A stretch of 32,000 bases of DNA from Candidatus Saccharimonadota bacterium. Lineage in GTDB: Bacteria; Patescibacteriota; Saccharimonadia; Saccharimonadales; Saccharimonadaceae. The notes beneath the pieces were generated by a model. The model was given only the letters and a program-made list of their open reading frames with translations. It ran no database searches and was not told where the DNA came from. Position numbers and translations under genes: made by a program. The stretch lies in contig CP006915.1 of NCBI GenBank assembly GCA_000503915.1, forward strand, positions 300,001 through 332,000. The letters are read 5' to 3'. Below, piece after piece: positions 7,799-22,747 of the stretch (within the stretch, counting starts at the first letter, position 1; each line of letters begins with the position of its first letter).

Positions 7799-10356
7799 AC
7801 ACTTGTGATAACGGTCAACTCGGCCTCGAGACGCTCGATAAGGGCGGTTGTCTCGAGCCGGGCTTGAGCGGTTTCCTCTACCAGATGAGCGGGCGCCTTC
7901 TGGACGTAGCTTTCATTACCGAGGCGCTTTTCAAGGGTATCACGCAGTTGCTTTGCCTCAGCCAGGCGCACCTCGAGATTCGTCTGGTGTTCATAGAGAG
8001 TTTTTTCATCAATGACGAGCCAGGCTTCCCTGCCCGATGTAGCCAGCCGCAAACCACGTGGCTGCTCGGTTCTCTCGAGGGATACCAGCCTCGCAAGGCT
8101 CTGGATGAGCTGCCGGTTGTCTTCAATCAGACTGTCCTGGCCGTATTCGACCGTGTACTTCTTGTTGCCAGGCAGTTCGCTGGTAACGAAGCGAATCTCG
8201 CTGACAAGCTGCTGTAAGCGTTCAAACTCTGCCGCAGCGATCTCGTCGTAGGCTGTATGGGTCGGCCAACTGGCCTGTATGACCATCGTTCCATCGGCGT
8301 ACCATGGCAGCGTTTGCCAGATGGTCTCGGTGACGAAAGGAGCGAAGGGATGCGCCAGACGAAGAACCGTGTCGAGTACCCAGGCGAGCATGTCATGATT
8401 TTGCTCGTGCTTACTTGCTTCGATGTACCAATCGGCGACACTGCTCCAGACGGTGTGATAGACCAGCTCAGCGGCTTCCGCAAAACGGTAGTCGGTAAGC
8501 AGACTTTCTACCTCTGTTGATGCGGAAGTAAGTTCATGGATAATCCAATGGTCGGCTAGACTGGCAGGTTCCGGTGAGTTCATTTTGTAATGCTCACCGA
8601 GCTTATCTTCGGTAAAGCGGGCAATGTTCCATAGTTTGTTGCAGAAGTTACGGCCAGCGACCACCTTTGAGGTGCTAAAGGCTTGATTCTGGCCAGCGCT
8701 CCTGGCCGCGACGAGGCCAAGCCGCAGTGCGTCGGAGCCGTATTCGCTGACGATCTCGATGGGGTTGATGACGTTCCCTTTTGATTTGCTCATTTTTTGA
8801 CCATGTTCATCGAGCACCAAGCCATGCAGGTAGACGTCTTTGAACGGTACCTTACCGGTTACTTTTAGCCCCAACATGATCATACGCGCGACCCAGGGGT
8901 AAAGGATGTCGTGTCCGGTTTCCATGACACTGATAGGATAAAATCGGGAAAGCCCGCCTTCGGTGAGGTAGTCCGTAGTAATAAACGGCCATTGTCCTGA
9001 GCTAAACCAGGTGTCGAAGGTATCCTCTTCTCTGCGGTATGTTTTGCCGTCGATAGTAAGTGTGGTCTCATCGACGCGCTCGTCATAGATCCAATCATTG
9101 GCATCGGCAATATTTTGGAACGCCGGGATCGGAATGCCCCACGGAATCTGGCGACTTAGGTTCCAGTCACGGATATTCTCCAAGTACTGTAGGATGTCAC
9201 GCTGTTTTGATTCGGGCACAAAGCGTATTTCACCTCTGTTGATCACTTCTCGGGCGGCGTCAGCTAGCGGCTTCATATTGAGGAACCACTGGTCTTTGAT
9301 AAGCGGCTGGATGATACTGCCGCATTTGTAGCAGTGCCCAACGGCGTGCTCGATCTCTTCCTCGCCGCGCAGAAGTTCCTCCGCCTGTAGTGCCGCTAGA
9401 ACACGTTTTCGTGCTTCGACAGAGGTGAGTCCACTGAATTGAGCGGGGACATTGATCATTGTGTTATCAAAATCAATAACTTGCAGTTCCGGCAGATTAT
9501 GGCGCTTCCCTATCTCAAAATCGTTTGGATCATGCGCTGGAGTGATCTTGACGGCACCGGTACCGAACTCGCGATCGACATATTCGTCGGCGATGATTGG
9601 CACTTCTCGATCAGTTAGAGGCAGAAGGACATGCGAACCGATCAGGCCTTTGTAGCGCTCGTCCTCAGGGTGAACCGCAACGGCGACGTCACCGAGCATC
9701 GTCTCCGGGCGAGTCGTGGCGATAACAATCTCGCCGATCTTATCAATTGTCGGGTAGGCAATCTTGTAGAGCTTCCCTTTTTCCATCTTGTGCTCGACTT
9801 CAATATCGGAAAAACTAGTCTGGTGTACTGTACAGTAGTTGACGATACGCTCACCTCTGTAAAGCAAGCCCTCATCCCATAGTTTTTTGAATGTTTGATA
9901 GGCAGTTTTGGTGACCTTTTCGTCGAGGCTAAAGACGAGATTGTCCCAGCTGGCACTGACACCGAGGGCGCGCAGCTGCAACTCCATATTACCTATGGTT
10001 TGGTCAACGAAATCCCAGACTTGGCTGTAGAGCTGCCCACGTGAAAAATCAAAGCGACTCTGCCCTTTCTTTTCAAGCTCTTTCTCATAAACTACCCAAG
10101 TTTCAAAGCCGGCGTGATCGGCACCAGGAATATAGACGGTATCCCTGCCCTTCATACGGTAAAAGCGAACTAATATATCTTCAACAGAGGTCATTAAACT
10201 GTGACCGATGTGAAGGTTTCCATTGGCATTGGGAGGTGGCATGACGATGGCGTAGGGCTCCCCTACCCCTGTCGGCGCAAACGCTCCGCTCTTTTCCCAT
10301 AGGGCGTAAATAGTTGGTTCGTAATCGTTCGGTTGGTAAGCTTTTGGTAGTTTCAT
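7795..10356 (-). CDS. valS: Valine--tRNA ligase
   Basis: 853 aa. HIGH motif (PPPNANGNLHIGH), KMSKS motif, and a C-terminal coiled-coil typical of ValRS. Confidence 0.95.
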   Translation of the reverse strand: MKLPKAYQPNDYEPTIYALWEKSGAFAPTGVGEPYAIVMPPPNANGNLHIGHSLMTSVEDILVRFYRMKGRDTVYIPGADHAGFETWVVYEKELEKKGQSRFDFSRGQLYSQVWDFVDQTIGNMELQLRALGVSASWDNLVFSLDEKVTKTAYQTFKKLWDEGLLYRGERIVNYCTVHQTSFSDIEVEHKMEKGKLYKIAYPTIDKIGEIVIATTRPETMLGDVAVAVHPEDERYKGLIGSHVLLPLTDREVPIIADEYVDREFGTGAVKITPAHDPNDFEIGKRHNLPELQVIDFDNTMINVPAQFSGLTSVEARKRVLAALQAEELLRGEEEIEHAVGHCYKCGSIIQPLIKDQWFLNMKPLADAAREVINRGEIRFVPESKQRDILQYLENIRDWNLSRQIPWGIPIPAFQNIADANDWIYDERVDETTLTIDGKTYRREEDTFDTWFSSGQWPFITTDYLTEGGLSRFYPISVMETGHDILYPWVARMIMLGLKVTGKVPFKDVYLHGLVLDEHGQKMSKSKGNVINPIEIVSEYGSDALRLGLVAARSAGQNQAFSTSKVVAGRNFCNKLWNIARFTEDKLGEHYKMNSPEPASLADHWIIHELTSASTEVESLLTDYRFAEAAELVYHTVWSSVADWYIEASKHEQNHDMLAWVLDTVLRLAHPFAPFVTETIWQTLPWYADGTMVIQASWPTHTAYDEIAAAEFERLQQLVSEIRFVTSELPGNKKYTVEYGQDSLIEDNRQLIQSLARLVSLERTEQPRGLRLATSGREAWLVIDEKTLYEHQTNLEVRLAEAKQLRDTLEKRLGNESYVQKAPAHLVEETAQARLETTALIERLEAELTVITSV

Positions 10357-10448
10357 ACTATAATCACGTGAAAAGAGGGTTTAATGCCTGGAGCACCTCG
10401 GTTATTTGTCCTTTTAAGTATAGCACAAGAGGGAGTATACTAAAGGGA

Positions 10449-11426
10449 ATGATAACGGTAGAGGTATATGAGACGGCTGATGCGTGGGACGCGCTGGTGG
10501 AAGAATTTGCTGGCCATCCACTCCAACATTGGGGGTGGGGGACAGTGAAAGGCAAGCATGGCTGGCAGGCGCACCGGTTGGCGGTACTTGACCAGGGCAA
10601 AGCTATTGGTGGCGCACAAGTGCTCAGTAAGCGGTTGCCGTGGCCATTTCCACCGTTTGTGTATCTGCCACGCGGGCCGTTCGGAAAACTAGTAACCGAA
10701 GGTAGATATAGGCAGACGCTGGTAGAAGAAGTACGCCGATTATATCGTCCATTGGTCATAAGCGCCGAACCCGACCTCGAGGGGCGTATCACGTGGAAAG
10801 GCTGGCGGCAGGCCAAACATCGCATTCTTTTGGCACGAACGGCAATCCTTGACCTTCGACCGACAGAGGATGAGCTTCTTGCTGGCATGAGCAAGAAGAC
10901 CAGGCAATACATCCGTAAGTCCGCCAAAGAGGGAACAGTGGTACGACGGGCTACTGCGCTCGTGGATATCGAGGTATGTCTTGCGATCTACAAGCTTACC
11001 GCCGCGCGTGCCGGCTTTGCCCTCCACGGTGATGACTATTACCAAGACATTTTTAAGGAACTTGGTGAGCATAGTCCGGTCTATTTGGCCGAGCATGGTG
11101 GAGAGGTTGTCGCCTTTTTGTGGCCGTTAGTGGCGAATAAGACCGCCTTTGAGCTCTATGGCGGCATGAACGACAGGGGTCAGGCAATCCGGGCAAATTA
11201 TTTTTTGAAGTGGAGCGTCATCCAAGAGATGAGGCAGCGTGGTGTCGAGCGTTATGATGTGAATGGACTGCTTAATGATGGTGTTACTGCCTTCAAAAAA
11301 GGCTTTATACCAGAGGAAACCATGATGGTGGGGACGCTTGATAAACCACTATCGCCGCTTTATCCGTTGTGGGTCTATGGCCTACCGCTTGCCAAACGCC
11401 TCGTGCGGTTGCTGCGACGACGCTAA
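10449..11426 (+). CDS. FemAB-family peptidyltransferase (aminoacyl-tRNA-dependent peptidoglycan branch formation)
   Basis: FemX-like layout (WDALVEEF...HPLQHWGWG...; KKTRQYIRKS; ELYGGM...). TATACT (10436-10441) ends 7 nt before the ATG at 10449. The 10314 start of the track ORF overlaps valS and is unlikely. Confidence 0.75.
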   Translation: MITVEVYETADAWDALVEEFAGHPLQHWGWGTVKGKHGWQAHRLAVLDQGKAIGGAQVLSKRLPWPFPPFVYLPRGPFGKLVTEGRYRQTLVEEVRRLYRPLVISAEPDLEGRITWKGWRQAKHRILLARTAILDLRPTEDELLAGMSKKTRQYIRKSAKEGTVVRRATALVDIEVCLAIYKLTAARAGFALHGDDYYQDIFKELGEHSPVYLAEHGGEVVAFLWPLVANKTAFELYGGMNDRGQAIRANYFLKWSVIQEMRQRGVERYDVNGLLNDGVTAFKKGFIPEETMMVGTLDKPLSPLYPLWVYGLPLAKRLVRLLRRR

Positions 11427-12692: not shown

Positions 12693-13769
12693 ATGAACCA
12701 TACGTTAGTAGGGAAGATGACCGCCCGCGCGGCGGCGATGCGATACCGACACCCTGGTCGTGACCTGCGGATTATTGCGGTAGCCGGCGCGTACGGCAAG
12801 ACGACAACATCGCTACTACTCGGGGGGATACTGCAAGAGGCCAAAGTACCGGTTGTTACCATGACGAGTCAAGGTTGCTATTTCAACGGCCAGCCGCTGC
12901 CACTGCGCTATGATGGAGGCGCACAAAGTTTGCAGCACGCCCTCGCCAAGGCAAAGCAGAAAAAAGCCGATGTCGTTATTGTTGAACTGAGCGAGCGGCT
13001 ACTGGAAAGCCACGTGCTGGCCACTGTTCCGATCGAGATGGCGATCGTTACTAGTGATGACCCGACCGCCCAAGCCTTGTTGCGCCAGCCAGCTAACTAT
13101 GCCGTATTACCAAGCGGCTTTGAGGTGGATGGCTTGAGTGTTGCACCGCATCAGGCAATCAGTTTTGGCACGGATGATCTCGCGGAAGCAAAGATTGCCA
13201 CCACGCGGCTGCTGCGCGGCGGTACCGAGATAGAGCTTGTAATCGATCATCAGACAAAGCTCGAGCTGGCGACGTATCTGGTTGGAAAAGCCAATGTCAT
13301 GAATATTGCTGCTGCCGTAGCCGGTGCGTACGTACTGGCGGCGGACATCGAGACGTTTCAGGAAGGTATCGCCAAGCTCGAGAAAGTGCGCGGCAATTTC
13401 GAAAAGGTTGCGGCCGACAGACCCTACGTTATCTATAGCGATCATGCGGTGCACGCTACCTCTGTGGAGCTGGCACTTGCCTCGGCTCATGAGCTTGCTA
13501 AACGGCGTTTATTGGTCGCGCTTGACGGTTCGGTTGAGCTTGGTAGTTTTGAAACAGTTAAGTCGCTGAGTGACCGGTTGGTTTTGGTGGGTGAAGAACG
13601 GGAAGAGCGCGGTGTCGAAAGCGTAGCGACCGCCGGTGAAGCGCTCGAAGTGATCTTTCGTGCTGCTAAAAAGGATGACTTTGTCTTACTGCTCGGCGCG
13701 GAGTTTACGAAGACGGATGACAGCGGCCAAAGTCTTGTCGAGCGAATGATTGAAGGTACCGGTGAGTAA
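12693..13769 (+). CDS. Mur-ligase-family paralog with degenerate catalytic motifs
   Basis: P-loop VAGAYGKTTT is present. ELSER and VTSDDPTAQ occupy the positions of the usual E-x-S-S-H and T-N-x-x-x-D-H-L-D motifs. TAAAAT ends 8 nt before the ATG. Confidence 0.65.
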   Translation: MNHTLVGKMTARAAAMRYRHPGRDLRIIAVAGAYGKTTTSLLLGGILQEAKVPVVTMTSQGCYFNGQPLPLRYDGGAQSLQHALAKAKQKKADVVIVELSERLLESHVLATVPIEMAIVTSDDPTAQALLRQPANYAVLPSGFEVDGLSVAPHQAISFGTDDLAEAKIATTRLLRGGTEIELVIDHQTKLELATYLVGKANVMNIAAAVAGAYVLAADIETFQEGIAKLEKVRGNFEKVAADRPYVIYSDHAVHATSVELALASAHELAKRRLLVALDGSVELGSFETVKSLSDRLVLVGEEREERGVESVATAGEALEVIFRAAKKDDFVLLLGAEFTKTDDSGQSLVERMIEGTGE

Positions 13770-15060
13770 GCTGCGCAGCGCTGTCAAGGCGCTGATTCCG
13801 CGGAGCCTTTTTAGGAAGGTCGAGCCGTATGGCCACCTCGTAGAAGCCGTTCTCATGAATATCCGCTATGGCTTTCCGGCGCGTGGCCTCCACGTGATCG
13901 GTGTGACGGGGACGAATGGCAAGACAACAACTAGTTTTATGATTCATCAGATGCTGGTCGAAGCTGGCTACGACGTAGCGCTAATGTCCACCGTGGCCAA
14001 TGGAGTCGGCAGGAATATTACGCCGCAGGTGGCGCACATGACGACCATCTCGTCGCCCCAACTTCTAAAGAGCATCCGGGCATTTAAAAAGCAGGGCGCC
14101 AAATGGCTGGTGCTCGAGACGACCAGCCACGCTTTGGCACAGCACCGCGTCTGGGGTGTACCGTATGAAATCGCCGTCATGACTAACGTTACTCACGAGC
14201 ATCTCGACTATCACGGAACGTTTGAACACTACGTGCAGGCGAAGGCCGAGCTTTTCCGGGTTGCGGCTCGGCATGGGCACCGGTTTGGCGTGATTAATGC
14301 CGACGATCCAAGCGCCAAAGTGTTTCAAGCGGCGATTGGTCGCTCAGTAACGTATGGACTAACCCACGGTGATGCTCGAGCAACGGCAGTCGAGCTGCGG
14401 CCAAATGGCAGCCACTACCGTGTGGTGATCGGCGAGGACGAGCTATCTATCACCTGTAATATCCCCGGTGAGTTTAATGTCTACAATAGCCTGGCAGCGG
14501 TCTGTGTTGGCCGAGAGCTGGGCTTGTCGCCCCAGCAAATCACTGATGGAATCGCCGCCTTGAAGGGAGTCGAAGGTCGCATGGATACCATCGACGAAGG
14601 CCAGAAGTTCTCGGTGGTAATCGACTTCGCTCACACGCCGGACTCTTTTGAACGATTGCTTGGTGACCTGCGAAAAGCGACCAGCGGTAAATTGGTCGTC
14701 ATGTTTGGTTCGGCTGGCCGGCGCGACGAAAGCAAGCGTGCCATCCAAGGTGAGATCGCGGGCCGTTATGCCGATGAAGTCGTCATCACCGAGGAAGACG
14801 ACCGCGACATCGATGGCCAAGCGATCATGGCTGAAATCGAAAAAGGTGCAAAAAAAGCCGGCAAGACGACCGGCCAAGACCTGTTTTTGGTGCACGATCG
14901 CAGCGAGGCGATTCGCCTTGCTATTTCACGCGTGAAGCACGCCAACGACGCGGTACTACTACTCGGAAAAGGGCACGAAAAGACGATTGAGCGCAGCGAC
15001 GGCGAACATCCGTGGGATGAAGCAGCTGAAGTCCGCAAAGCACTGAGAGACATCGGCTAA
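13750..15060 (+). CDS. murE: MurE-like UDP-MurNAc-tripeptide synthetase (short N-terminus)
   Basis: GVTGTNGKTTT, LETTSHAL, TNVTHEHLDYHGT, GSAGRRDESKR, and LLLGKGHE. The track start is a TTG at 13750 overlapping the upstream stop; a GTG at 13762 is an alternative. The P-loop sits at about residue 55, so most of the usual N-terminal domain is missing. Confidence 0.8.
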   Translation: MKVPVSKLRSAVKALIPRSLFRKVEPYGHLVEAVLMNIRYGFPARGLHVIGVTGTNGKTTTSFMIHQMLVEAGYDVALMSTVANGVGRNITPQVAHMTTISSPQLLKSIRAFKKQGAKWLVLETTSHALAQHRVWGVPYEIAVMTNVTHEHLDYHGTFEHYVQAKAELFRVAARHGHRFGVINADDPSAKVFQAAIGRSVTYGLTHGDARATAVELRPNGSHYRVVIGEDELSITCNIPGEFNVYNSLAAVCVGRELGLSPQQITDGIAALKGVEGRMDTIDEGQKFSVVIDFAHTPDSFERLLGDLRKATSGKLVVMFGSAGRRDESKRAIQGEIAGRYADEVVITEEDDRDIDGQAIMAEIEKGAKKAGKTTGQDLFLVHDRSEAIRLAISRVKHANDAVLLLGKGHEKTIERSDGEHPWDEAAEVRKALRDIG

Positions 15061-15068
15061 GCAGATGC

Positions 15069-16100
15069 TTAGTAGTACGACTCGTGGTGCCGTTTGAAAT
15101 AGAGTTTTCGGACGGCTTTTTCGATAAACACATGCCATAGCTTTGCTTTGAATGGCTGGATAGGCACGTCGTAAGCGCCGACATATTCGGTAACAGTCTT
15201 GTTGAAGCTAGTCTTGAAGCGACCAAGGCCGTAAAACGGATGATCAGAGTTGGTAATGTCGGCGATCGGTGGTACACCGGCGAGGTCGTGAGCCTTAGAG
15301 CCGTGAGACTTTGCCCATTCGATCACTTTCCACTGCAGCAGATGGCTGGCACCGTAGGCGGTTCGCTCGCGCACCGAAGCGCCGTCTTTATACATACTTT
15401 TTTCACCTTGTACCAGGGCGAAAGCGCCGGCAACCACTTGCTTATTGAAGTAGGCGAAGAAGAACTGTCCAAGGCCAGCTTGTTCGTAGCGACGGTAAAA
15501 AGTCTGGTAATACTCGGGCGGGCGAATAGCGAACCCAGCTCCCATCGAGGTTTCGGCAAAGAGGTCATACATGACTCGGCAGTTTTCATCACTGGCAGGT
15601 ACTTGCTTGACTGTCACGCCATCACGCTCGGCACGGCGGATGGCGTGGCGGCCTTTTTGTGGCAGACGTTTCATGATTTCATCGGGCGAAGGAGTGAGAT
15701 CGATGATAACGGTGGCATAGTTGTACTGGATCGGGGTAGTTTTGATAAGATCGGCTGTTTTAAGTACCGTGGTGTGGTTAAGCTCGGGTTCGATTTTCAG
15801 GCTGAATACGCCGTTTGCCTTTGCAAATTGCCGCAAGGGTGCGAGGATTTGTTCGAGATCGGTGGGTGAGGTCGTGCTCGGACCTTTCGGGCAGTACCAC
15901 AGCTTGCCGAGCAAGGGTAGCGATCTTTCCAGAATAGCGACCGCCCGCGAACCGACGAATAGGTAGCACGGCGTCCAACCGCTATCGGCTTTTTGCTCTA
16001 GGAACTCTTTGCCTTGTAAGATAGCACCGCCGTCGGGGTTGTGGATGATAAAAGTATTCCATTCGGCTATTTCGGTTGCTGTAGCAAATCGTGCGTTCAT
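15069..16100 (-). CDS. FemAB-family peptidyltransferase, second copy
   Basis: 343 aa, with the same family layout as 10449-11426 (WNTFI...; KGRHAIRRAE; gap-free alignment by eye across the core). TACAAT (complement of 16109-16114) ends 8 nt before the ATG. Confidence 0.75.
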   Translation of the reverse strand: MNARFATATEIAEWNTFIIHNPDGGAILQGKEFLEQKADSGWTPCYLFVGSRAVAILERSLPLLGKLWYCPKGPSTTSPTDLEQILAPLRQFAKANGVFSLKIEPELNHTTVLKTADLIKTTPIQYNYATVIIDLTPSPDEIMKRLPQKGRHAIRRAERDGVTVKQVPASDENCRVMYDLFAETSMGAGFAIRPPEYYQTFYRRYEQAGLGQFFFAYFNKQVVAGAFALVQGEKSMYKDGASVRERTAYGASHLLQWKVIEWAKSHGSKAHDLAGVPPIADITNSDHPFYGLGRFKTSFNKTVTEYVGAYDVPIQPFKAKLWHVFIEKAVRKLYFKRHHESYY

Positions 16101-16130
16101 TATCCTCTATTGTAGCGCAGTTTTGGTATG

Positions 16131-16154
16131 AAAAAACTACACCCGGTGGTGTAG
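16131..16154 (-). terminator. Rho-independent terminator (minus strand) after the high-GC gene
   Basis: On the minus strand: ctacacc-accg-ggtgtag followed by tttttt. Confidence 0.75.
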
Positions 16155-16176
16155 GGAGGAAGATTCATTGAGTGCA

Positions 16177-16239
16177 CCTGCCCGGTGCGGGGTGAGGAGC
16201 GCTTGAGTAGCACTTCATCTCACCCCACACCAGGGCAGG
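16177..16239 (-). other. Long GC-rich imperfect hairpin immediately 3' of the high-GC gene
   Basis: Arms cctgcccggtgcggggtgag (16177-16196) and ctcaccccacaccagggcagg (16219-16239) are near-complementary. Confidence 0.6.
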
Positions 16240-16271
16240 CGTTCTCAACCATCCCGAGATGGCGGGGAAGC

Positions 16272-17036
16272 TCACTGGTTGTGAGCGCCCCAACCAAGCA
16301 TGATGAACCGCTGACGCATGTGGTCGTGGATCGACGTGACCGCCGACCGGAAGACACCCCCACCGATGTGGCCGGTCAAGGTGTTGACATGCCCGCTATT
16401 GGCGGGCACCCACGTCTGGCCGTCCATCAGGTAGACCTCGAAGTCAACGCTCTTGAGGTGCGTCTTCCACGTGTAGGTCTGCCCAGGCTTGATGACCGGG
16501 TGGACACGCGGCGTGCCCTCGGCGTATGTGCCGGCGAGCAGCTTGTACTTGTGCTCGGAGGTGGCGGGCACGTGCCACTTCAGCACGGCTGCATGGTGCT
16601 TGGTGTAGCGATGCGCAACCGTCGGTACAACCGGGTCGGGCAATACGACGGCAACGTCGATGCTACCCGTGACGAAATCGTCACCCGACGTCCCCTTACG
16701 GAGCACGTAGTTGATCGTGTCGATTCCCGACACCCCAACGCTGGCGGTGTAGTAGAGCAGGTTGTGCTCAATACCGCCTTCATCGGTGTAGTAGCCGCTG
16801 AACGCGTAGCCAAGGCTCGGCGGGTTGTCGCTGTCAGCGGCGAACAGGTGGTAGCCATCGTGCTGGACGCGGGCGTCGTAGCACATCAGGTCAAGCTCGA
16901 CGAAGCCACCGGCGTAGATCGTCGGTGACTCCTCCGGGCAGGCCACAGCTGCTGTGGCCTCAGTGGTGAAGGCGGCTAGGCTCAACAGAGCTAAAACCGC
17001 TACCGCCAGACCGGCGATGTATTTGCGAAGGGACAT
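16272..17036 (-). CDS. Secreted protein with Ig/cadherin-like repeat signature, high-GC (probable horizontal acquisition)
   Basis: The ATG at 17036 has AAAGGGGGG upstream. Signal peptide MSLRKYIAGLAVAVLALLSLAAFTTEATAA. The GIDTINYVLRKGTSGDDFVTGSIDVAVV segment resembles bacterial Ig-like/cadherin-like repeats. Third codon positions are strongly G/C. Confidence 0.7.
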   Translation of the reverse strand: MSLRKYIAGLAVAVLALLSLAAFTTEATAAVACPEESPTIYAGGFVELDLMCYDARVQHDGYHLFAADSDNPPSLGYAFSGYYTDEGGIEHNLLYYTASVGVSGIDTINYVLRKGTSGDDFVTGSIDVAVVLPDPVVPTVAHRYTKHHAAVLKWHVPATSEHKYKLLAGTYAEGTPRVHPVIKPGQTYTWKTHLKSVDFEVYLMDGQTWVPANSGHVNTLTGHIGGGVFRSAVTSIHDHMRQRFIMLGWGAHNQ

Positions 17037-17218
17037 GACGTCCCCCCTTTCATCTAGGATGGTTGAGTTTTTAGCGCACGAGGGAGTGATCCGGCTCGTG
17101 GACATGCGTGAGTTTCGTAGCCAGAGGCTTCGTCTCACACAAGCCAGACAACTATAACATAATTGGTACAAAAAAGCAATACTTACTACTCAGTAGAGTT
17201 TTTGTACAAAGGAGTGGA

Positions 17219-19412: not shown

Positions 19413-19443
19413 AATGAGGGGAACCGAAATAGGTTCCCTCATT
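19413..19443 (+). other. Strong 13-bp hairpin just after the groEL stop (no U tract)
   Basis: aatgaggggaacc-gaaata-ggttcccctcatt. Confidence 0.6.
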
Positions 19444-19497: not shown

Positions 19498-19536
19498 AAA
19501 AATATCCTGGAAATAAATTCCAGGATATTTATTTTT
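19498..19536. terminator. Terminator between groEL and the helicase cassette
   Basis: 11-bp hairpin aatatcctgga-aataaat-tccaggatatt, then tattttt. An A-run precedes it, so it is possibly bidirectional. Confidence 0.7.
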
Positions 19537-19615: not shown

Positions 19616-22093
19616 CTAACTGTCTAGTGTGTTACGTAGCTCGTGGTGGTCTTCAAGTAACTGATAAAGCTCTTCCAGTTTATCCCTGAGCGATTCAAGA
19701 TACGCGAGACGTGATGCGTAGACATCAAGGGTCGCGAGTCGTTGTCCAAGCGAAGACTCATGGTCGGCTACGGGGGTCTGATTTAATCGATCGATTTCAC
19801 CCTCAACTATCCGAATTGCGTCGTCAATCTGCTCCTCTCTTTCCCAGAATGCTCGGTAGGTAGGTTCTTTTATACCAAGTCGGCTTCGGGTATCAGCCAC
19901 TGCGCGCCAATAGAACGGGGTTTTCTCACCGTCGTCAGACATCCAAGGATATGCAGTCTTTTCATATTCCGATTTAACGCGCTTAACAAGTGGAATATCG
20001 GGTAAGGGAGCAGCAAGGCTGAAACTAGTAAACTGCTGTATAAATGGATTGCCGGAGTTCCTCCTATTTGTTTCGTGAATGGTGGGCTCCTCCTTGTCTC
20101 CTATATGGTGATCTTCATAGTAGTCTCGTAAACTTTCAGAACGTGAAGGGTGCCGTAGTTTGGCCAAGGCTTTTGACTCAATCTGGCGTACCCGCTCTTT
20201 TGTGATTCCATAGACTTTACCTATTTCATCTAACTCCATCGGCTCCTCTTTATCGACGCCTTCAACCCGGCCAATCCCTCCGATTTGTCCTTTTTGGTCG
20301 CGACTGTGAAGGCCAAAACGGCGCATTACAACACCTGCCTCTCGCTCACTTAGGGTATCAAGCGTGTCATGGAGTTGCTGCCTTGAGTGAAAGCCTACGG
20401 CCATCTGATGCGGGTTGCTTATTTCATCATTGTTTGCAACATCTTCTAGATCGAGCTGCACAAGCTGGTCGAGCTCTGCTCTTAGGGCGAATGATCCGAG
20501 AATATTTCGCTCGGGGCCAGAGACCTTGCCCATGGTTTCGATGAGCTCGTCCACCGAAGGGGCAACGCCATGGTCGTGATAAAACTTGGCGTACGCTTTA
20601 CTTACCCGCTTCTCAAGCTTTGGCGGCAAGGCATCGTTGTGGGAGAGCTCGGCTGGCAGCCCTTCCTTTTCTAGGGTAGCTTCCCATTCAGCAATAAGTG
20701 GATCGGTAATTTTTCCCACTGTAACGTTTCGCAGGAGCTTGCCTTGGCTTTCTATCAATCTTTTATGAATTTTGGGGCTGATCACATGAAGCAATTTCAG
20801 GCTGTGACTATGAGCCGGAGTGTGTTCAGCGGGGCGACCGAGCACACGGGTAAGATCGATCGTGTCAAGTCCTAAGGCGTGCATAGCTGTGTATTGTGAC
20901 TTGCTTCGACTACCAGATTTTTTATCAACAAAGTCGACAAAAATACTTTCGAGATCGTCAGGCTTCTTGCGCAGAATACGTCCAAGTAGTTGAGTGGTGC
21001 GCACAGGTGAACTGGTCGGCGCTAAGTTAATCGCAAAGCTCGCTCGATCACTATCCCAACCTTCTTCCAACGCGCGCGTGAAAGTGAGTACGTCGAAATC
21101 ACCGCGATGGTACGCGGCGAGACGACGCGCTTGTGTTTCAGCGTCGAGATGTGCACCAACGTCGGCTGCTCTTATGCCGGATGTCTTAAGTAAGTCGGCA
21201 AGCAGGCGCGCATGGAGGTTGTCTCTACCAGGTATGCAGGCGATGATGCCTTGTCTACCTTCCTCTACAAATGCTTTGGTGAGGGCGACTGCTGTGCCAT
21301 TACGCTGGAGGTTATGTGTAAGCGGGGCAAGTTCTTTATCAGTAAATTCCCGCCGAGGATCGTTTAGAACGAGGGTTTCATCTGTTTCATACAGAAAAGC
21401 GCGTACAGGTGAAGTGCGGCCGGATTCGACAGCGTCACGAAGAGAAAACTCGTACAGTCGACGATCGTATACCTCTTCTGACATTCGGTCTACTGCGTAG
21501 TCAGGGGTAGCAGAAAGTCCTAACTTAAAGGCGTGCGGCATGACAGTGCGCAATACTTCCGAAGTCTCTTTACCGAGACTTCGGTGGCATTCATCGGCAA
21601 TGATCACGTCAAACTCACCCAGTTTACGGTGTTCACTTTTAGCATCATTCAGGAGTCCGGCATAGGTACTGACTACCACGTCGGCGTTTTTATTTCCTTT
21701 TTTTCCATTAAAATGTTGCTCGACACGTGCATTTTCGGGTAAATGAGCAAAGCGCTTCAGACCAGTGGGAGAAGATGACTCTGAGCCATCGATTTGTTTG
21801 GCGATAGGTAGAGTGGGGGCAAGAAGTAGTACGCGTTTTCCAGCTTTGACAGCTGCTTCAGTGAGTAACGCTTCTACAGTGGTTTTCCCGGTACTGGTAG
21901 CCATCTCTATGTATCCAGAGGAAACGCCTTCTATTAAAGCAAGACCAATAGCCTCAAGCGCTTCAGTTTGCTGGAGGTCAAGAGAAAAGTCGCGTTCAGA
22001 TAAGTTATTGAGCACCCCTTGGAGCGAGCCGGCCAGCTCACAATCTGGCTTGGAGGAGGTTTCTGCAGAGGGTACAAGGTGCTCTTTTGGCAT
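19616..22093 (-). CDS. SF2 (DEAH-type) helicase fused to sigma-70 region 3-4-like domain plus extra C-terminal coiled-coil region
   Basis: Helicase motifs [31 protein letters not shown] (aa ~40-375). Residues ~505-658 are colinear with RpoD regions 3-4: [14 protein letters not shown] ... [15 protein letters not shown] ... [40 protein letters not shown]. About 170 further aa end in heptad-like repeats. Confidence 0.85.
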
Positions 22094-22099
22094 GAGGAT

Positions 22100-22128
22100 A
22101 TGCTAGCATAAAAGCACTAAAAAGTCAA
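22100..22128 (-). promoter_or_regulatory. Promoter of the helicase-sigma gene (leaderless-type)
   Basis: On the minus strand: TTGACT, 17 nt, TGcTAGCAT, 6 nt (atcctc), then the ATG at 22093. Confidence 0.65.
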
Positions 22129-22144
22129 GAGGTAGATGATGAAC

Positions 22145-22747
22145 CTACTGTCCGCTTTGGGTTAAGAAGTCGATCTCCTTGATGATATCGAGCAGCGCCT
22201 GGGCACGGCGGGTTTCATCAGGGATATTCTTGGCAGCGTCGTGAGCGGGTGCGATCAGGGCTTTGTCGTCAGTGGAACGAAGCAGGAGCAGGTACGTGTC
22301 GAACTTTTCCTCAGGTGCGACGTTCAGCTTATCGACCAGTGGTCGCAGCTCGCCGAGTGCTTCCTGTTTTATGCCATCGAGTTCGCTTCCGCCGCTTACT
22401 GGCATACTCGATAGTGACGGAGTAGGTATAGACAGAGGCGTATCAGCGGCCGGCGGCAGGGTCGATGTCTCGACATCTGTTGATTTTGGTGGAACAGTTG
22501 AAATAGACGGCGATTCTACGTCTGAAGCCAGAGAGGTGTCGTCTGCCGGTGCGGTAGTGTCGTCCTCAGGAGAAGGAGTAGCCGCGCTGTCATCTTGCGG
22601 CAGTGGCGGTGTGGCAGGCAGCGAAACATCGGTGGCACCACCATTAGTTGTCGTTTCATCCGCCTGTTGGCTGACGCCAGCTAAAACTTTCGCCAGCTCT
22701 TGATCATCGCTGAGCGGTTGGTTGTTGATTGGTTCTATATTCGCCAT
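22145..22747 (-). CDS. Acidic Pro/Ser/Thr/Ala-rich low-complexity protein with conserved helical C-terminal domain
   Basis: Start at MANIEPINNQ (ATG 22747). A long low-complexity middle is followed by the structured C-terminus ELDGIKQEALGELRPLVDKL...AQALLDIIKEIDFLTQSGQ. No family recognised. Confidence 0.6.
   Translation of the reverse strand: MANIEPINNQPLSDDQELAKVLAGVSQQADETTTNGGATDVSLPATPPLPQDDSAATPSPEDDTTAPADDTSLASDVESPSISTVPPKSTDVETSTLPPAADTPLSIPTPSLSSMPVSGGSELDGIKQEALGELRPLVDKLNVAPEEKFDTYLLLLRSTDDKALIAPAHDAAKNIPDETRRAQALLDIIKEIDFLTQSGQ

Follow-up and report, generated by a model that had tools for sequence, protein, structure and literature searches.

In the window, by which we mean the whole 32,000-nucleotide stretch of DNA analyzed here (contig CP006915.1 of a Candidatus Saccharimonadota bacterium, positions 300,001 to 332,000 of the forward strand), one gene joins a complete SF2 helicase to the C-terminal half of a primary-type sigma factor. 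Helicase-sigma fusions of this kind are a conserved and stable family of Saccharimonadia, not a one-off. We tentatively favor the reading that the protein is an SF2 DNA translocase, which would be directed to the RNAP core and/or to −35-like promoter DNA via sigma-like contacts and would remodel transcription complexes.

Gene and genomic setting

The gene product matches RAAC3_TM7C00001G0355, a hypothetical protein from Candidatus Saccharibacteria bacterium RAAC3_TM7_1, at every residue. The original prediction had described a single uninterrupted ORF and had quoted helicase and sigma motifs from it; the ORF was recovered in full, and all of the motifs were found where they had been placed. 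The gene and the elements next to it are as follows.

19616 to 22093, minus strand: whole ORF, 825 aa plus stop codon, with an ATG start and no internal stops
22100 to 22128, minus strand: promoter-like TTGACT-17-TAGCAT with TG before it, a consensus match only, ending 7 nt ahead of the ATG
22145 to 22747, minus strand: small co-directional upstream ORF of ~200 aa, likely start MANIEP
19500 to 19530, no strand assigned: hairpin with a 13-bp stem and A/T runs on both sides, in the gap where groEL and the helicase-sigma gene converge

Since the promoter-like match lies so close to the ATG, it would imply a leaderless transcript or a very short 5' UTR; the count of such consensus matches in the region was not above that in shuffled sequence. 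The hairpin is a candidate bidirectional terminator. Close relatives have the gene order PGI, small ORF, helicase-sigma gene, and groEL-groES in common, and the neighboring genes (groESL, PGI, Mur ligases, aaRS, and RNR) are housekeeping genes. The family sits in a core-chromosomal, housekeeping setting that is syntenic in close relatives. No family match was found for the small upstream ORF in Pfam, PADLOC, or PHROGs, and it was rejected as an obligatory partner because its synteny is limited to the close subclade and it lacks such matches.

The helicase part

The N-terminal part of the protein and the segment that follows it comprise these features.

21359 to 21982, minus strand: RecA-like lobe 1 of an SF2 helicase (ResIII/DEAD), residues 38 to 245, Pfam ResIII 5e-24
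21881 to 21904, minus strand: motif I, MATSTGKT, the Walker A motif of lobe 1, residues 64 to 71
21584 to 21595, minus strand: motif II, DECH, the DExH motif of lobe 1, residues 167 to 170
21506 to 21514, minus strand: motif III, SAT, lobe 1, residues 194 to 196
20909 to 21310, minus strand: RecA-like lobe 2 of the SF2 helicase (Helicase_C), residues 262 to 395, Pfam Helicase_C 1.5e-8
21053 to 21085 and 20969 to 20992, minus strand: lobe 2 motifs, within the Helicase_C lobe
20627 to 20908, minus strand: conserved helical linker domain after the helicase, residues 396 to 489, with motifs QYTA(M/L)HAL, SQGKLL, DPLxxxWE, and EGLPAEL

Judged by its motifs, the segment from residue 38 to residue 395 is a complete DExH SF2 helicase of the ResIII type, in which motifs I, II, III, and VI are present, the last as QLLGRILR at residues 368 to 375 of lobe 2 (QxxGRxxR arginine finger). 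Both lobes scored above the curated Pfam cut-offs (ResIII, 85.5 bits versus 22.5; Helicase_C, 35.3 bits versus 23.5), and the two-lobe fold was predicted at a pLDDT above 90. In lobe 1, G69, K70, D167, E168, H170, A195, and T196 were invariant across 66 homologues; in lobe 2, Q368, G371, R372, and R375 were likewise invariant. The catalytic residues are thus intact throughout the family, and the complete SF2 core claimed in the original prediction was borne out. The helicase is also the most conserved part of the family (mean pairwise distance, 0.46). Its subfamily is loosely assigned, as Foldseek with the whole protein returned only generic SF2 folds (E values of 1e-15 to 1e-12).

Second-tier helicases without sigma domains still aligned up to profile position ~470. 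Because the segment from residue 396 to residue 489 is common to such sigma-less helicases, we assign it to the helicase clade and not to sigma. A hidden sigma region 2 within it was considered and rejected, since it gave no HMM match and the segment is found in sigma-less helicases.

The sigma-like part

The remainder of the protein was divided into the following features.

20474 to 20626, minus strand: three-helix domain like sigma region 3.0/3.1, residues 490 to 540, including GVAPSVDEL (G-x-x-P-T/S-x-x-E motif)
20414 to 20473, minus strand: acidic linker like sigma region 3.2, residues 541 to 560, aligned to the HrdB 3.2 linker
20114 to 20413, minus strand: sigma region 4 (4.1, the 4.2 HTH, and the C-terminal helix), residues 561 to 660, Pfam Sigma70_r4 2.8e-14
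20243 to 20308, minus strand: lineage-specific insertion of ~22 aa in the sigma 4.1-4.2 loop, residues 596 to 617, an 18-residue gap versus E. coli and HrdB
19619 to 20113, minus strand: variable C-terminal tail, residues 661 to 825, column identity 0.14 to 0.25
19649 to 19858, minus strand: predicted antiparallel helical hairpin or coiled coil at the tail end, residues 746 to 815

Profile alignments and the structure model indicate that residues ~490 to 660 are colinear with regions 3.0 to 4.2 of primary sigma factors. A profile of residues 476 to 665 aligned end to end with residues 357 to 510 of HrdB (E=4.6e-44), and the NCBIfam model RpoD_Cterm matched residues 496 to 659 at model positions 88 to 237. 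When the AlphaFold model of the sigma module was searched with Foldseek, the best matches, which covered sigma3 as well as sigma4, were sigma-A chains from structures of RNAP initiation complexes. Together with the Sigma70_r4 match (52.8 bits versus a cut-off of 24.1), these results uphold the claim that sigma regions 3.0 to 4.2 are joined to the helicase. Every sigma alignment began at region 3.0, and searches for Sigma70_r2 and r1_2 found nothing in the whole protein (E≤1) or in residues 400 to 581 (E≤10). Since region 2 is absent, the protein cannot recognize a −10 element or hold the beta-prime clamp helices in the manner of a sigma factor, and we agree with the original prediction that a protein lacking regions 1 and 2 is not a sigma factor.

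The Pfam set expected at the outset was recovered in part: ResIII, Helicase_C, and Sigma70_r4 scored above their curated cut-offs, and Sigma70_r3 gave no match, not even when the segment was searched on its own with the threshold relaxed to E≤10. Region 3 is present but diverged, as judged by profile, motif, and fold and not by Pfam. Three helices were predicted in the sigma3-like domain (residues 491 to 508, 514 to 521, and 526 to 535), the G-x-x-P-T-x-x-E hallmark is kept in 47 to 56 of the 66 family members, and a profile of residues 476 to 572 alone gave marginal matches to region 3 of FliA and SigA (E values of 1e-3 to 2e-2). The 3.2-like linker was modeled at a pLDDT below 50, shows a column identity of 0.24 to 0.30, and varies in length across the family.

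Region 4 matched HrdB at an E value of 1e-19. Its identity to HrdB is 72% over 67 positions, compared to 60% between E. coli sigma70 and HrdB, so that it is no more diverged than true primary sigmas are among themselves. The 30-residue C-terminal sigma motif quoted in the original prediction spans residues 630 to 659 (nucleotides 20117 to 20206). The sigma4 model superposed on chimeras of SigA region 4 and the beta-flap tip with an rmsd of 1.4 Å (Foldseek). Among the 66 members, the −35-reading residues are R584 in 35 (K in 6), E585 in 42, R586 in 58, R588 in 49, and Q589 in 52, and the hydrophobic residues of 4.1 and 4.2 and the C-terminal KLRHPSRS..L helix are kept across the family. By sequence and model, sigma4 looks functional. 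The insertion in the 4.1-4.2 loop has 51% gaps in the family and a pLDDT below 50; elsewhere in the family this site holds longer insertions, and some members have tens of residues inserted in the 3.2 linker and the 4.1/4.2 loop. Sigma4 has a mean pairwise distance of 0.64 across the family, versus 0.46 for the helicase.

The original prediction had also described ~170 aa beyond sigma4 with a coiled-coil-like end, which agrees with the ~165 aa observed and the confidently modeled helical hairpin (helices 746 to 772 and 779 to 815, pLDDT 80 to 94). No family match was found for the tail, which may serve in oligomerization or partner binding.

Distribution and relatives

Of 72 clusters of homologues at 90% identity, 65 show the same architecture; in the other 7, a recognizable region 4 has been lost. 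At 50% identity it was found in ~75 clusters, nearly all labeled Saccharimonadia. Helicase and sigma-part distances correlate across the family. No members occurred on viral contigs, and a phage origin was rejected on this ground and because the PADLOC and PHROG matches are partial. No support was found for an assembly chimera or frameshift joining two genes; separate sigma3-4 genes at two related loci (L022 and L012) show that the parts can exist apart. The probability of such an artifact is negligible, given that the ORF is uninterrupted, that the architecture recurs in dozens of independent assemblies (JGI, ENA, NCBI, and Logan) at 30 to 64% identity, and that the conserved linker domain spans the junction.

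The two separate genes are helicase-less relatives. L022 encodes a 313-aa protein of sigma3-4 plus tail at the same syntenic locus, and L012 encodes a paralogue of 567 aa that contains sigma3/4 and lies immediately downstream of a full-length member. Such natural versions would fit a sigma competitor or regulator, in which sigma3-4 is the functional core and would tune sigma-A-dependent transcription by occupying the beta-flap and sigma3 sites of RNAP or as a decoy for region 4 binders, with the helicase as an accessory. The helicase, however, is the best-conserved part, and its catalytic residues are all invariant, which is not expected of an accessory; moreover, the helicase-less forms are rare (2 seen versus ~75 full-length clusters), and no anti-sigma-like partner was identified nearby. 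We regard this explanation as improbable.

Sister helicases carry other domains at the same C-terminal position, among them MarR, HTH_24, HTH_6, and dsrm. The L019 locus is a further instance of other domains in this position. Taken together, the generic HTH domains of the sister helicases and the helicase-less relatives make a simple role in DNA targeting or regulation a serious possibility.

Two further proteins, the distant relative P0073 (1087 aa) and P0096 (875 aa), likewise have an N-terminal ResIII-type SF2 helicase followed by sigma-70 domains; the P0073 helicase is 29% identical to that of the window protein. Unlike the latter, both keep sigma regions 1.2 and 2 and could hence act as real sigma factors. 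P0073 also differs in having three extra HTH repeats and a mobile-element context (resolvase, TraG-like, FtsK, and Mrr genes), and the P0096 helicase is XPB-like and bears ERCC3_RAD25_C. The two are uncharacterized fusions of a helicase to a complete sigma.

The setting of P0073 bears on the suggestion of the original prediction that the protein might be a mobile-element or defense factor; in the version considered here, it would be a restriction-like translocase directed against invading DNA or foreign transcription complexes. In favor of this, the helicase lobe is similar to PbeA (9e-25), to type IV restriction enzymes of the SauUSI type, and to HsdR, and sigma4 alone matched the MZA defense sigma MzaA in NCBIfam and PADLOC. 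These library matches, however, span only generic helicase or sigma4 segments, far below family level (PADLOC coverage: PbeA, 251 to 445 of 672, helicase lobe 1; MzaA, 624 to 671 of 683, sigma4). Neither a nuclease domain nor defense partners or an island were found, the neighbors are housekeeping genes with stable synteny in close relatives, and viral contigs yielded no members. The suggestion is therefore disfavored, and we consider a defense role extremely unlikely.

Searches for a separate sigma gave the following results. When the window and all relatives' loci were searched by tblastn with an RpoD as the query, only the fusion genes matched. Searches with the sigma module returned only short proteins (≤333 aa), of which the named ones were all actinobacterial, and did not return the family itself. 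P0241 and P0378 were rejected as Saccharibacterial rpoD candidates, being actinobacterial-type sigmas in large-genome contexts.

Proposed function

In the Saccharimonadia lineage, the C-terminal slot in which a ResIII-type motor usually carries its nucleic-acid-targeting domain is filled by the C-terminal half of a HrdB/SigA-like primary sigma. In the mechanism that we tentatively favor, the sigma3-4 module would dock the motor at the site of sigma's rear half: sigma4 would contact the beta-flap tip of RNAP and/or −35-like DNA of the TTGACA type, and sigma3 the neighboring surface of the core. Moving along duplex DNA at the expense of ATP, the motor would then remodel RNAP-DNA complexes or clear them away, either at promoters or once transcription has terminated, and the protein would compete with full sigma. 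In the holoenzyme, sigma 3.2 and sigma4 fill the RNA exit path, so that canonical docking would be limited to RNA-free core. Region 2 is the main core-binding determinant of sigma, so that weak binding to core is all that would be expected of a sigma3-4 fragment. Moreover, the linker and loop insertions and the poor conservation of 3.2 are hard to square with threading through the RNA exit channel.

The main rival to the RNAP-directed reading is DNA-only targeting by an HTH, which we consider somewhat unlikely. Here, sigma3-4 would be a sequence-specific HTH for −35-like DNA that never touches RNAP and loads the helicase at promoter-like or other sites, for example in repair, R-loop or branch processing, or chromosome maintenance. 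The variety of unrelated HTH/wHTH and dsRNA-binding domains that occupy the same slot in the broader helicase clade suggests that the module's general job may be nucleic-acid targeting, and the conserved DNA-reading residues of sigma4.2, the tolerance of large insertions in the 3.2 linker and the 4.1-4.2 loop, and the faster evolution of sigma4 compared to the helicase all point the same way. DNA-only targeting, however, leaves unexplained why the sigma3 signature motif, an entire colinear sigma half, and a primary-sigma-type KLRHPSRS..L helix have been retained, and isolated sigma4 binds −35 DNA only weakly without core.

Returning to the RNAP-directed reading, a more elaborate form of it would be a sigma-displacing complex without sigma2, in which sigma4 reads a −35-like element, sigma3/3.2 seat the module, and the ATP-driven motor supplies the DNA opening or remodeling for which region 2 is normally responsible, making the protein a TFIIH-XPB counterpart or an ATP-dependent RNAP recycler in a genome-reduced CPR bacterium; we judge this very unlikely. 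A still bolder variant has the HrdB-like module engage the RNAP of the actinobacterial host, as Saccharibacteria live on Actinobacteria and sigma4 is closest to actinobacterial HrdB. The window GroEL, taken as a control from the same genome, was likewise closest to an actinobacterial counterpart (M. tuberculosis GroEL2, among natural PDB chains). The affinity thus appears to be genome-wide and not sigma-specific, which weakens this variant, and host mimicry was downgraded.

Saccharibacteria are tiny, uncultivated, ultra-small epibionts with minimal gene sets. To our knowledge, all characterized bacterial RNAP-associated motors (RapA, Mfd, HelD, and UvrD/PcrA) dock by dedicated domains of their own, and we know of none that borrows the RNAP- and promoter-binding half of sigma. 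The original prediction had named no characterized helicase of this architecture, and our full-text searches of a paper library turned up no account of a helicase fused to sigma either; comparative-genomics papers naming both terms did so without it. If docking to RNAP or promoters holds true, the family would represent an undescribed way to bring ATP-driven DNA remodeling to these targets, and the fusion offers a natural experiment on sigma regions 3 and 4 in the absence of region 2. Were this confirmed, the transcription machinery of the Candidate Phyla Radiation, about which little is known, would gain a component.

Comparison with known systems

The closest counterpart of the sigma-like part is the C-terminal half of RpoD/SigA/HrdB, with which it shares the order of regions 3.0, 3.1, 3.2, 4.1, and 4.2, the −35 readers, the KLRHPSRS tail, and the predicted fold. 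Regions 1.1, 1.2, and 2 of RpoD, SigA, and HrdB have no counterpart in the window protein, which is thus without the main anchor to core and unable to recognize a −10 element or melt promoters; nor has the family kept the extended −10 readers H455 and E458. Further differences are the loose 3.2 linker, the 4.1-4.2 insertion, the 490-aa helicase ahead of the module, and the 165-aa tail after it.

For the helicase (residues 38 to 400), the best sequence and fold matches were T4 UvsW, RadD, HsdR, the SauUSI helicase module, Hef, and XPB. They share the DECH motif II and the lobe arrangement at an identity of only 15 to 21%, and none has sigma domains. In contrast to such ResIII-type translocases, the window protein lacks a nuclease and the DRD domain of XPB, and ERCC3_RAD25_C gave no match. 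PF16203 was absent from the window protein and, by precomputed lists, from family members, and XPB structures ranked in the middle among generic SF2 matches. Searches for anti-phage systems (PbeA, type I/IV restriction, and MZA) gave neither a full-length match nor partner genes.

RapA (Swi2/Snf2), HelD (SF1), and Mfd (SF2) combine a P-loop motor with a dedicated RNAP-docking module, which is the working principle proposed for the window protein. RapA binds near the beta-flap and the RNA exit region. None of the three docks by sigma domains or is homologous to the window protein beyond the generic SF2 core. SNF2-rel_dom scored 13.1 bits versus a cut-off of 24.9 (E=0.052), and RapA was absent from the top sequence and fold matches in the PDB. 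Neither the CarD_TRCF RID nor the TRG/UvrB-homology module of Mfd was found in Pfam or NCBIfam searches, with Mfd appearing only as a generic SF2 fold match (2eyq_B, rmsd 16.8), and the domains of HelD are absent from the window protein. Finally, T4 gp33, AsiA, Rsd, and lambda Q, which are small, motor-less, not derived from sigma3-4, and without detected sequence relationship to the window protein, target the flap tip or sigma4, the same docking site that we propose for the helicase-sigma fusion.

The 825-aa ORF and its helicase motor

The original prediction of one continuous 825-aa ORF was borne out: the minus strand carries 825 unbroken codons at window positions 19616-22093, beginning with ATG, and every string it had quoted was located at its site in the translation. 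The product matches at 100% the hypothetical protein RAAC3_TM7C00001G0355 of Candidatus Saccharibacteria bacterium RAAC3_TM7_1 (genome, 845 kb). Both SF2 helicase families expected from Pfam, ResIII and Helicase_C, exceeded their curated cut-offs.

Features of the helicase-sigma protein (residues)
38-198, ResIII (Pfam, 5e-24)
64-71, motif I, MATSTGKT
167-170, motif II, DECH
194-196, motif III, SAT
281-376, Helicase_C (Pfam, 1.5e-8)
368-375, motif VI
578-648, Sigma70_r4 (Pfam, 2.8e-14)
630-659, sigma-like ending (nt 20117-20206, minus strand)
746-815, helical hairpin (confidently predicted structure)

The helicase catalytic residues K70, D167, E168, H170, Q368, R372, and R375 were invariant in 66 sequences, and the helicase was the slowest-evolving part of the family (mean pairwise distance, 0.46). 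The predicted motor is shown to be an intact ResIII-type DExH helicase of the SF2 superfamily. Next comes a conserved helical stretch (residues 396-489) that extends the helicase and is also present in sigma-less relatives. As for the proposed tail of ~170 aa with a coiled-coil-like end, the last 165 residues are indeed variable and end in the predicted hairpin.

The sigma3-4 module

Colinearity with regions 3.0 to 4.2 of a primary sigma factor had been proposed for residues ~505-658 and was upheld, over residues ~490-660, by profile alignment to HrdB, by NCBIfam, and by Foldseek. The expected Pfam matches were obtained in part: Sigma70_r4 exceeded its curated cut-off, and Sigma70_r3 gave no match, not even at E≤10 when the segment was searched in isolation. 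Other evidence shows that region 3 is present, in diverged form. A family profile of residues 476-572 matched FliA and the SigA proteins of Thermus and mycobacteria at region 3, marginally (E = 1e-3 to 2e-2) but with all matches falling on the correct part of sigma, and the sigma3 hallmark G-x-x-P-T-x-x-E is kept (of 66 members, 54 have the G, 56 the P, 46 a T or S, and 47 the E). RpoD tblastn against the relatives gave single alignments from region 3 through region 4.

Over residues 476-665, the profile aligned end-to-end with Streptomyces HrdB 357-510, from region 3.0 to the C terminus (E=4.6e-44), as well as with sigma factors of M. tuberculosis (SigA, 1e-42), B. subtilis (6e-37), E. coli (7e-31), and Thermus (1e-27); positions 88-237 of the 238-position RpoD_Cterm model aligned to residues 496-659. 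With the AlphaFold model of residues 476-665 (pLDDT 78), the top Foldseek matches were exclusively sigma-A chains from RNA polymerase initiation complexes, spanning both domains, and SigA-region-4/flap-tip chimeras superposed at an rmsd of 1.4 Å with 54% identity. By profile and fold matching, the protein is shown to carry a colinear sigma3-3.2-4 module of primary-sigma type. The predicted absence of regions 1 and 2 also held: HMM searches gave no signal for region 1.2 or region 2, and residues 396-489 belong to the helicase. Since region 2 is absent, the protein does not belong to the sigma-70 family in a functional sense.

Sigma4 evolves faster than the helicase (mean pairwise distance, 0.64 versus 0.46). 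At the sequence level, its divergence runs toward the primary-sigma consensus: over 67 positions, identity to HrdB is 72% for the window protein and 60% for E. coli sigma70. The -35-contacting residues of sigma70 are mostly kept (R554 in 55, R562 in 48, R584 in 35 with K in a further 6, E585 in 42, R586 in 58, R588 in 49, and Q589 in 52 of 66 members), as are the hydrophobic residues of 4.1/4.2 and the C-terminal helix. Conservation among the 66 members does not extend to H455 and E458, the readers of the extended -10 element. It is also poor in the 3.2-like linker, whose length varies, and insertions concentrate in the 4.1-4.2 loop (~22 residues in the window protein, 596-617; up to ~35 elsewhere). 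Several members share a ~35-aa insert there with the motif IDPDSKEEVGY, and some have an additional HTH-like segment between sigma3 and sigma4.

The module's best matches were actinobacterial HrdB/SigA, and cultured Saccharibacteria are epibionts of Actinobacteria. Among natural PDB chains, the window GroEL is closest to M. tuberculosis GroEL2; as GroEL is likewise actinobacteria-like, the module's affinity probably reflects genome-wide phylogenetic signal. Host mimicry, considered because of the HrdB likeness, was set aside as probably not evidenced by it, since GroEL has the same affinity.

Distribution and genomic setting

A word-indexed search gave 72 homolog clusters at 90% identity (E = 0 to 1.8e-79), 65 of which combine Sigma70_r4 with helicase domains. 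In an exhaustive profile search, ~75 representatives at 50% identity aligned through sigma4, and all sampled more distant ones carried ResIII and Sigma70_r4. The feature is neither an artifact, an explanation that is hardly conceivable, nor a singleton; it is real and conserved. Named sources and a scan of species-representative genomes nearly confine the family to Saccharibacteria, Saccharimonadia, and Patescibacteria MAGs.

In close relatives, the gene order is PGI, small ORF, helicase-sigma gene, and convergent groEL-groES; more distant members occupy other, equally ordinary chromosomal contexts. Sequence comparison shows long-term conservation of the fusion at chromosomal loci. Housekeeping genes make up the remainder of the window (aaRS, TsaD, Mur ligases, FemAB, a MacB-type ABC transporter, ribonucleotide reductase). 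No member was found in the viral contigs searched, and PADLOC and PHROG matches were limited to generic helicase or sigma4 segments; a role in defense is very unlikely.

Other features of the window
10314-11426, plus strand, FemAB-family gene
12693-13769, plus strand, first of two adjacent Mur-ligase ORFs
13750-15060, plus strand, second Mur-ligase ORF
15069-16100, minus strand, FemAB-family gene
16272-17171, minus strand, 299-aa ORF
19413-19443, strong hairpin
19500-19530, strong hairpin
22100-22128, minus strand, promoter-like TTGACT-17-TAGCAT, preceded by TG
22145-22747, minus strand, small conserved ORF, co-directional, 51 nt upstream of the helicase-sigma gene

The small ORF contains the motif DDQELAKVL; its middle is P/T/S-rich and of low complexity, and its C-terminal ~85 aa form a well-conserved helical region. 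It has no match in Pfam, PADLOC, or PHROGs; its listed start (22810) is probably too far upstream, MANIEP being the likely start. The promoter-like site, a consensus match of a kind not enriched over shuffled sequence, ends 7 nt before the helicase-sigma start codon; with no recognizable Shine-Dalgarno sequence there, the mRNA may be leaderless or nearly so. Both hairpins fall within the 206 nt that separate the convergent groEL and helicase-sigma genes; that at 19500-19530 (13-bp stem, A- and T-runs on either side) is probably a bidirectional terminator. The FemAB-family genes flank the Mur-ligase pair. The first Mur-ligase ORF has only a partial Mur_ligase_M match and extends past the start of the second; it may therefore be a duplicate that is truncated or has diverged. 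The 299-aa ORF appears to carry a hydrophobic signal or anchor at its N terminus (LALLSLAAFTTEATA) and matched nothing in Pfam; GC is locally raised nearby (0.596 at 16001-17000 versus ~0.50-0.55 elsewhere).

Related helicases and separated modules

Below the sigma-bearing family, the profile search returned hundreds of related helicases (925 proteins at E≤1e-30). These have the same motor and linker domain with different C-terminal modules: among 54 sampled, MarR, HTH_24, HTH_6, HTH_11, dsrm, IF2_N, and, in 3 proteins, sigma region 2 either alone or together with region 4. At locus L019 (1-1088 and 7001-10198), nearby paralog pairs of sigma-less relatives (1093 and 1065 aa) have multiple weak HTH-type matches in each C-terminal half, which suggests a wider clade of helicases with DNA-binding-domain arrays.

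Two proteins join a related helicase to a complete sigma. One, P0096, has an XPB-like motor. The other, P0073 (L007:8001-11264, 1087 aa), combines its helicase with a complete sigma (r1.2-like, r2, r4) and with three HTH-like repeats, and looks like a mobile-element version of the fusion because its neighbors are resolvase, TraG/VirD4-like, FtsK, Mrr, and SOS-type genes.

Versions of the module that lack the helicase also exist. A 313-aa protein (L022:3900-4841) of sigma3-4 and tail, aligned to window residues 463-661 at 44.5% identity, lies at the same PGI/small-ORF/groEL-groES locus and is a natural helicase-less variant; upstream, a ThrE-family membrane-protein gene (L022:2351-3841) takes the helicase's place. 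A helicase-less 567-aa paralog (L012:8670-10373; Sigma70_r4, 4e-8; weak r3) immediately follows a full-length member (L012:5521-8610, 1029 aa). This pair is located after a ribosomal protein L10-like gene, identified from N-terminal sequence only. Helicase-less variants lend some support to action as a sigma competitor or regulator, which we nonetheless consider improbable.

Proposed role and comparison with known systems

In holoenzyme structures, the rear half of sigma touches the beta-flap tip, neighboring core surfaces, and the -35 element. Given these contacts, the simplest function of the module would be to recruit the motor to RNA polymerase and/or -35-like DNA. Tentatively, we propose a motor so targeted: the sigma3-4 module would carry it there, and ATP-driven translocation would then remodel or clear RNA polymerase-DNA complexes. 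A serious rival, though a less probable one, is targeting of DNA only: the loose 3.2 linker, the insertions tolerated in the module, the generic HTH domains of sister helicases, and the missing sigma2 anchor all count against docking to RNA polymerase. Sigma3 and the complete colinear sigma half are retained, however, and for this reason docking to RNA polymerase is favored over a bare HTH.

We found no description of the helicase-sigma3-4 architecture in full-text literature outside subscription journals, where a prior mention may exist; among characterized proteins it is unprecedented. The protein lacks the defining features of RapA, Mfd, XPB, and the PADLOC systems, and is therefore none of these. 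The role proposed here is comparable to those of RapA, HelD, and Mfd, from which the window protein differs in its docking device.
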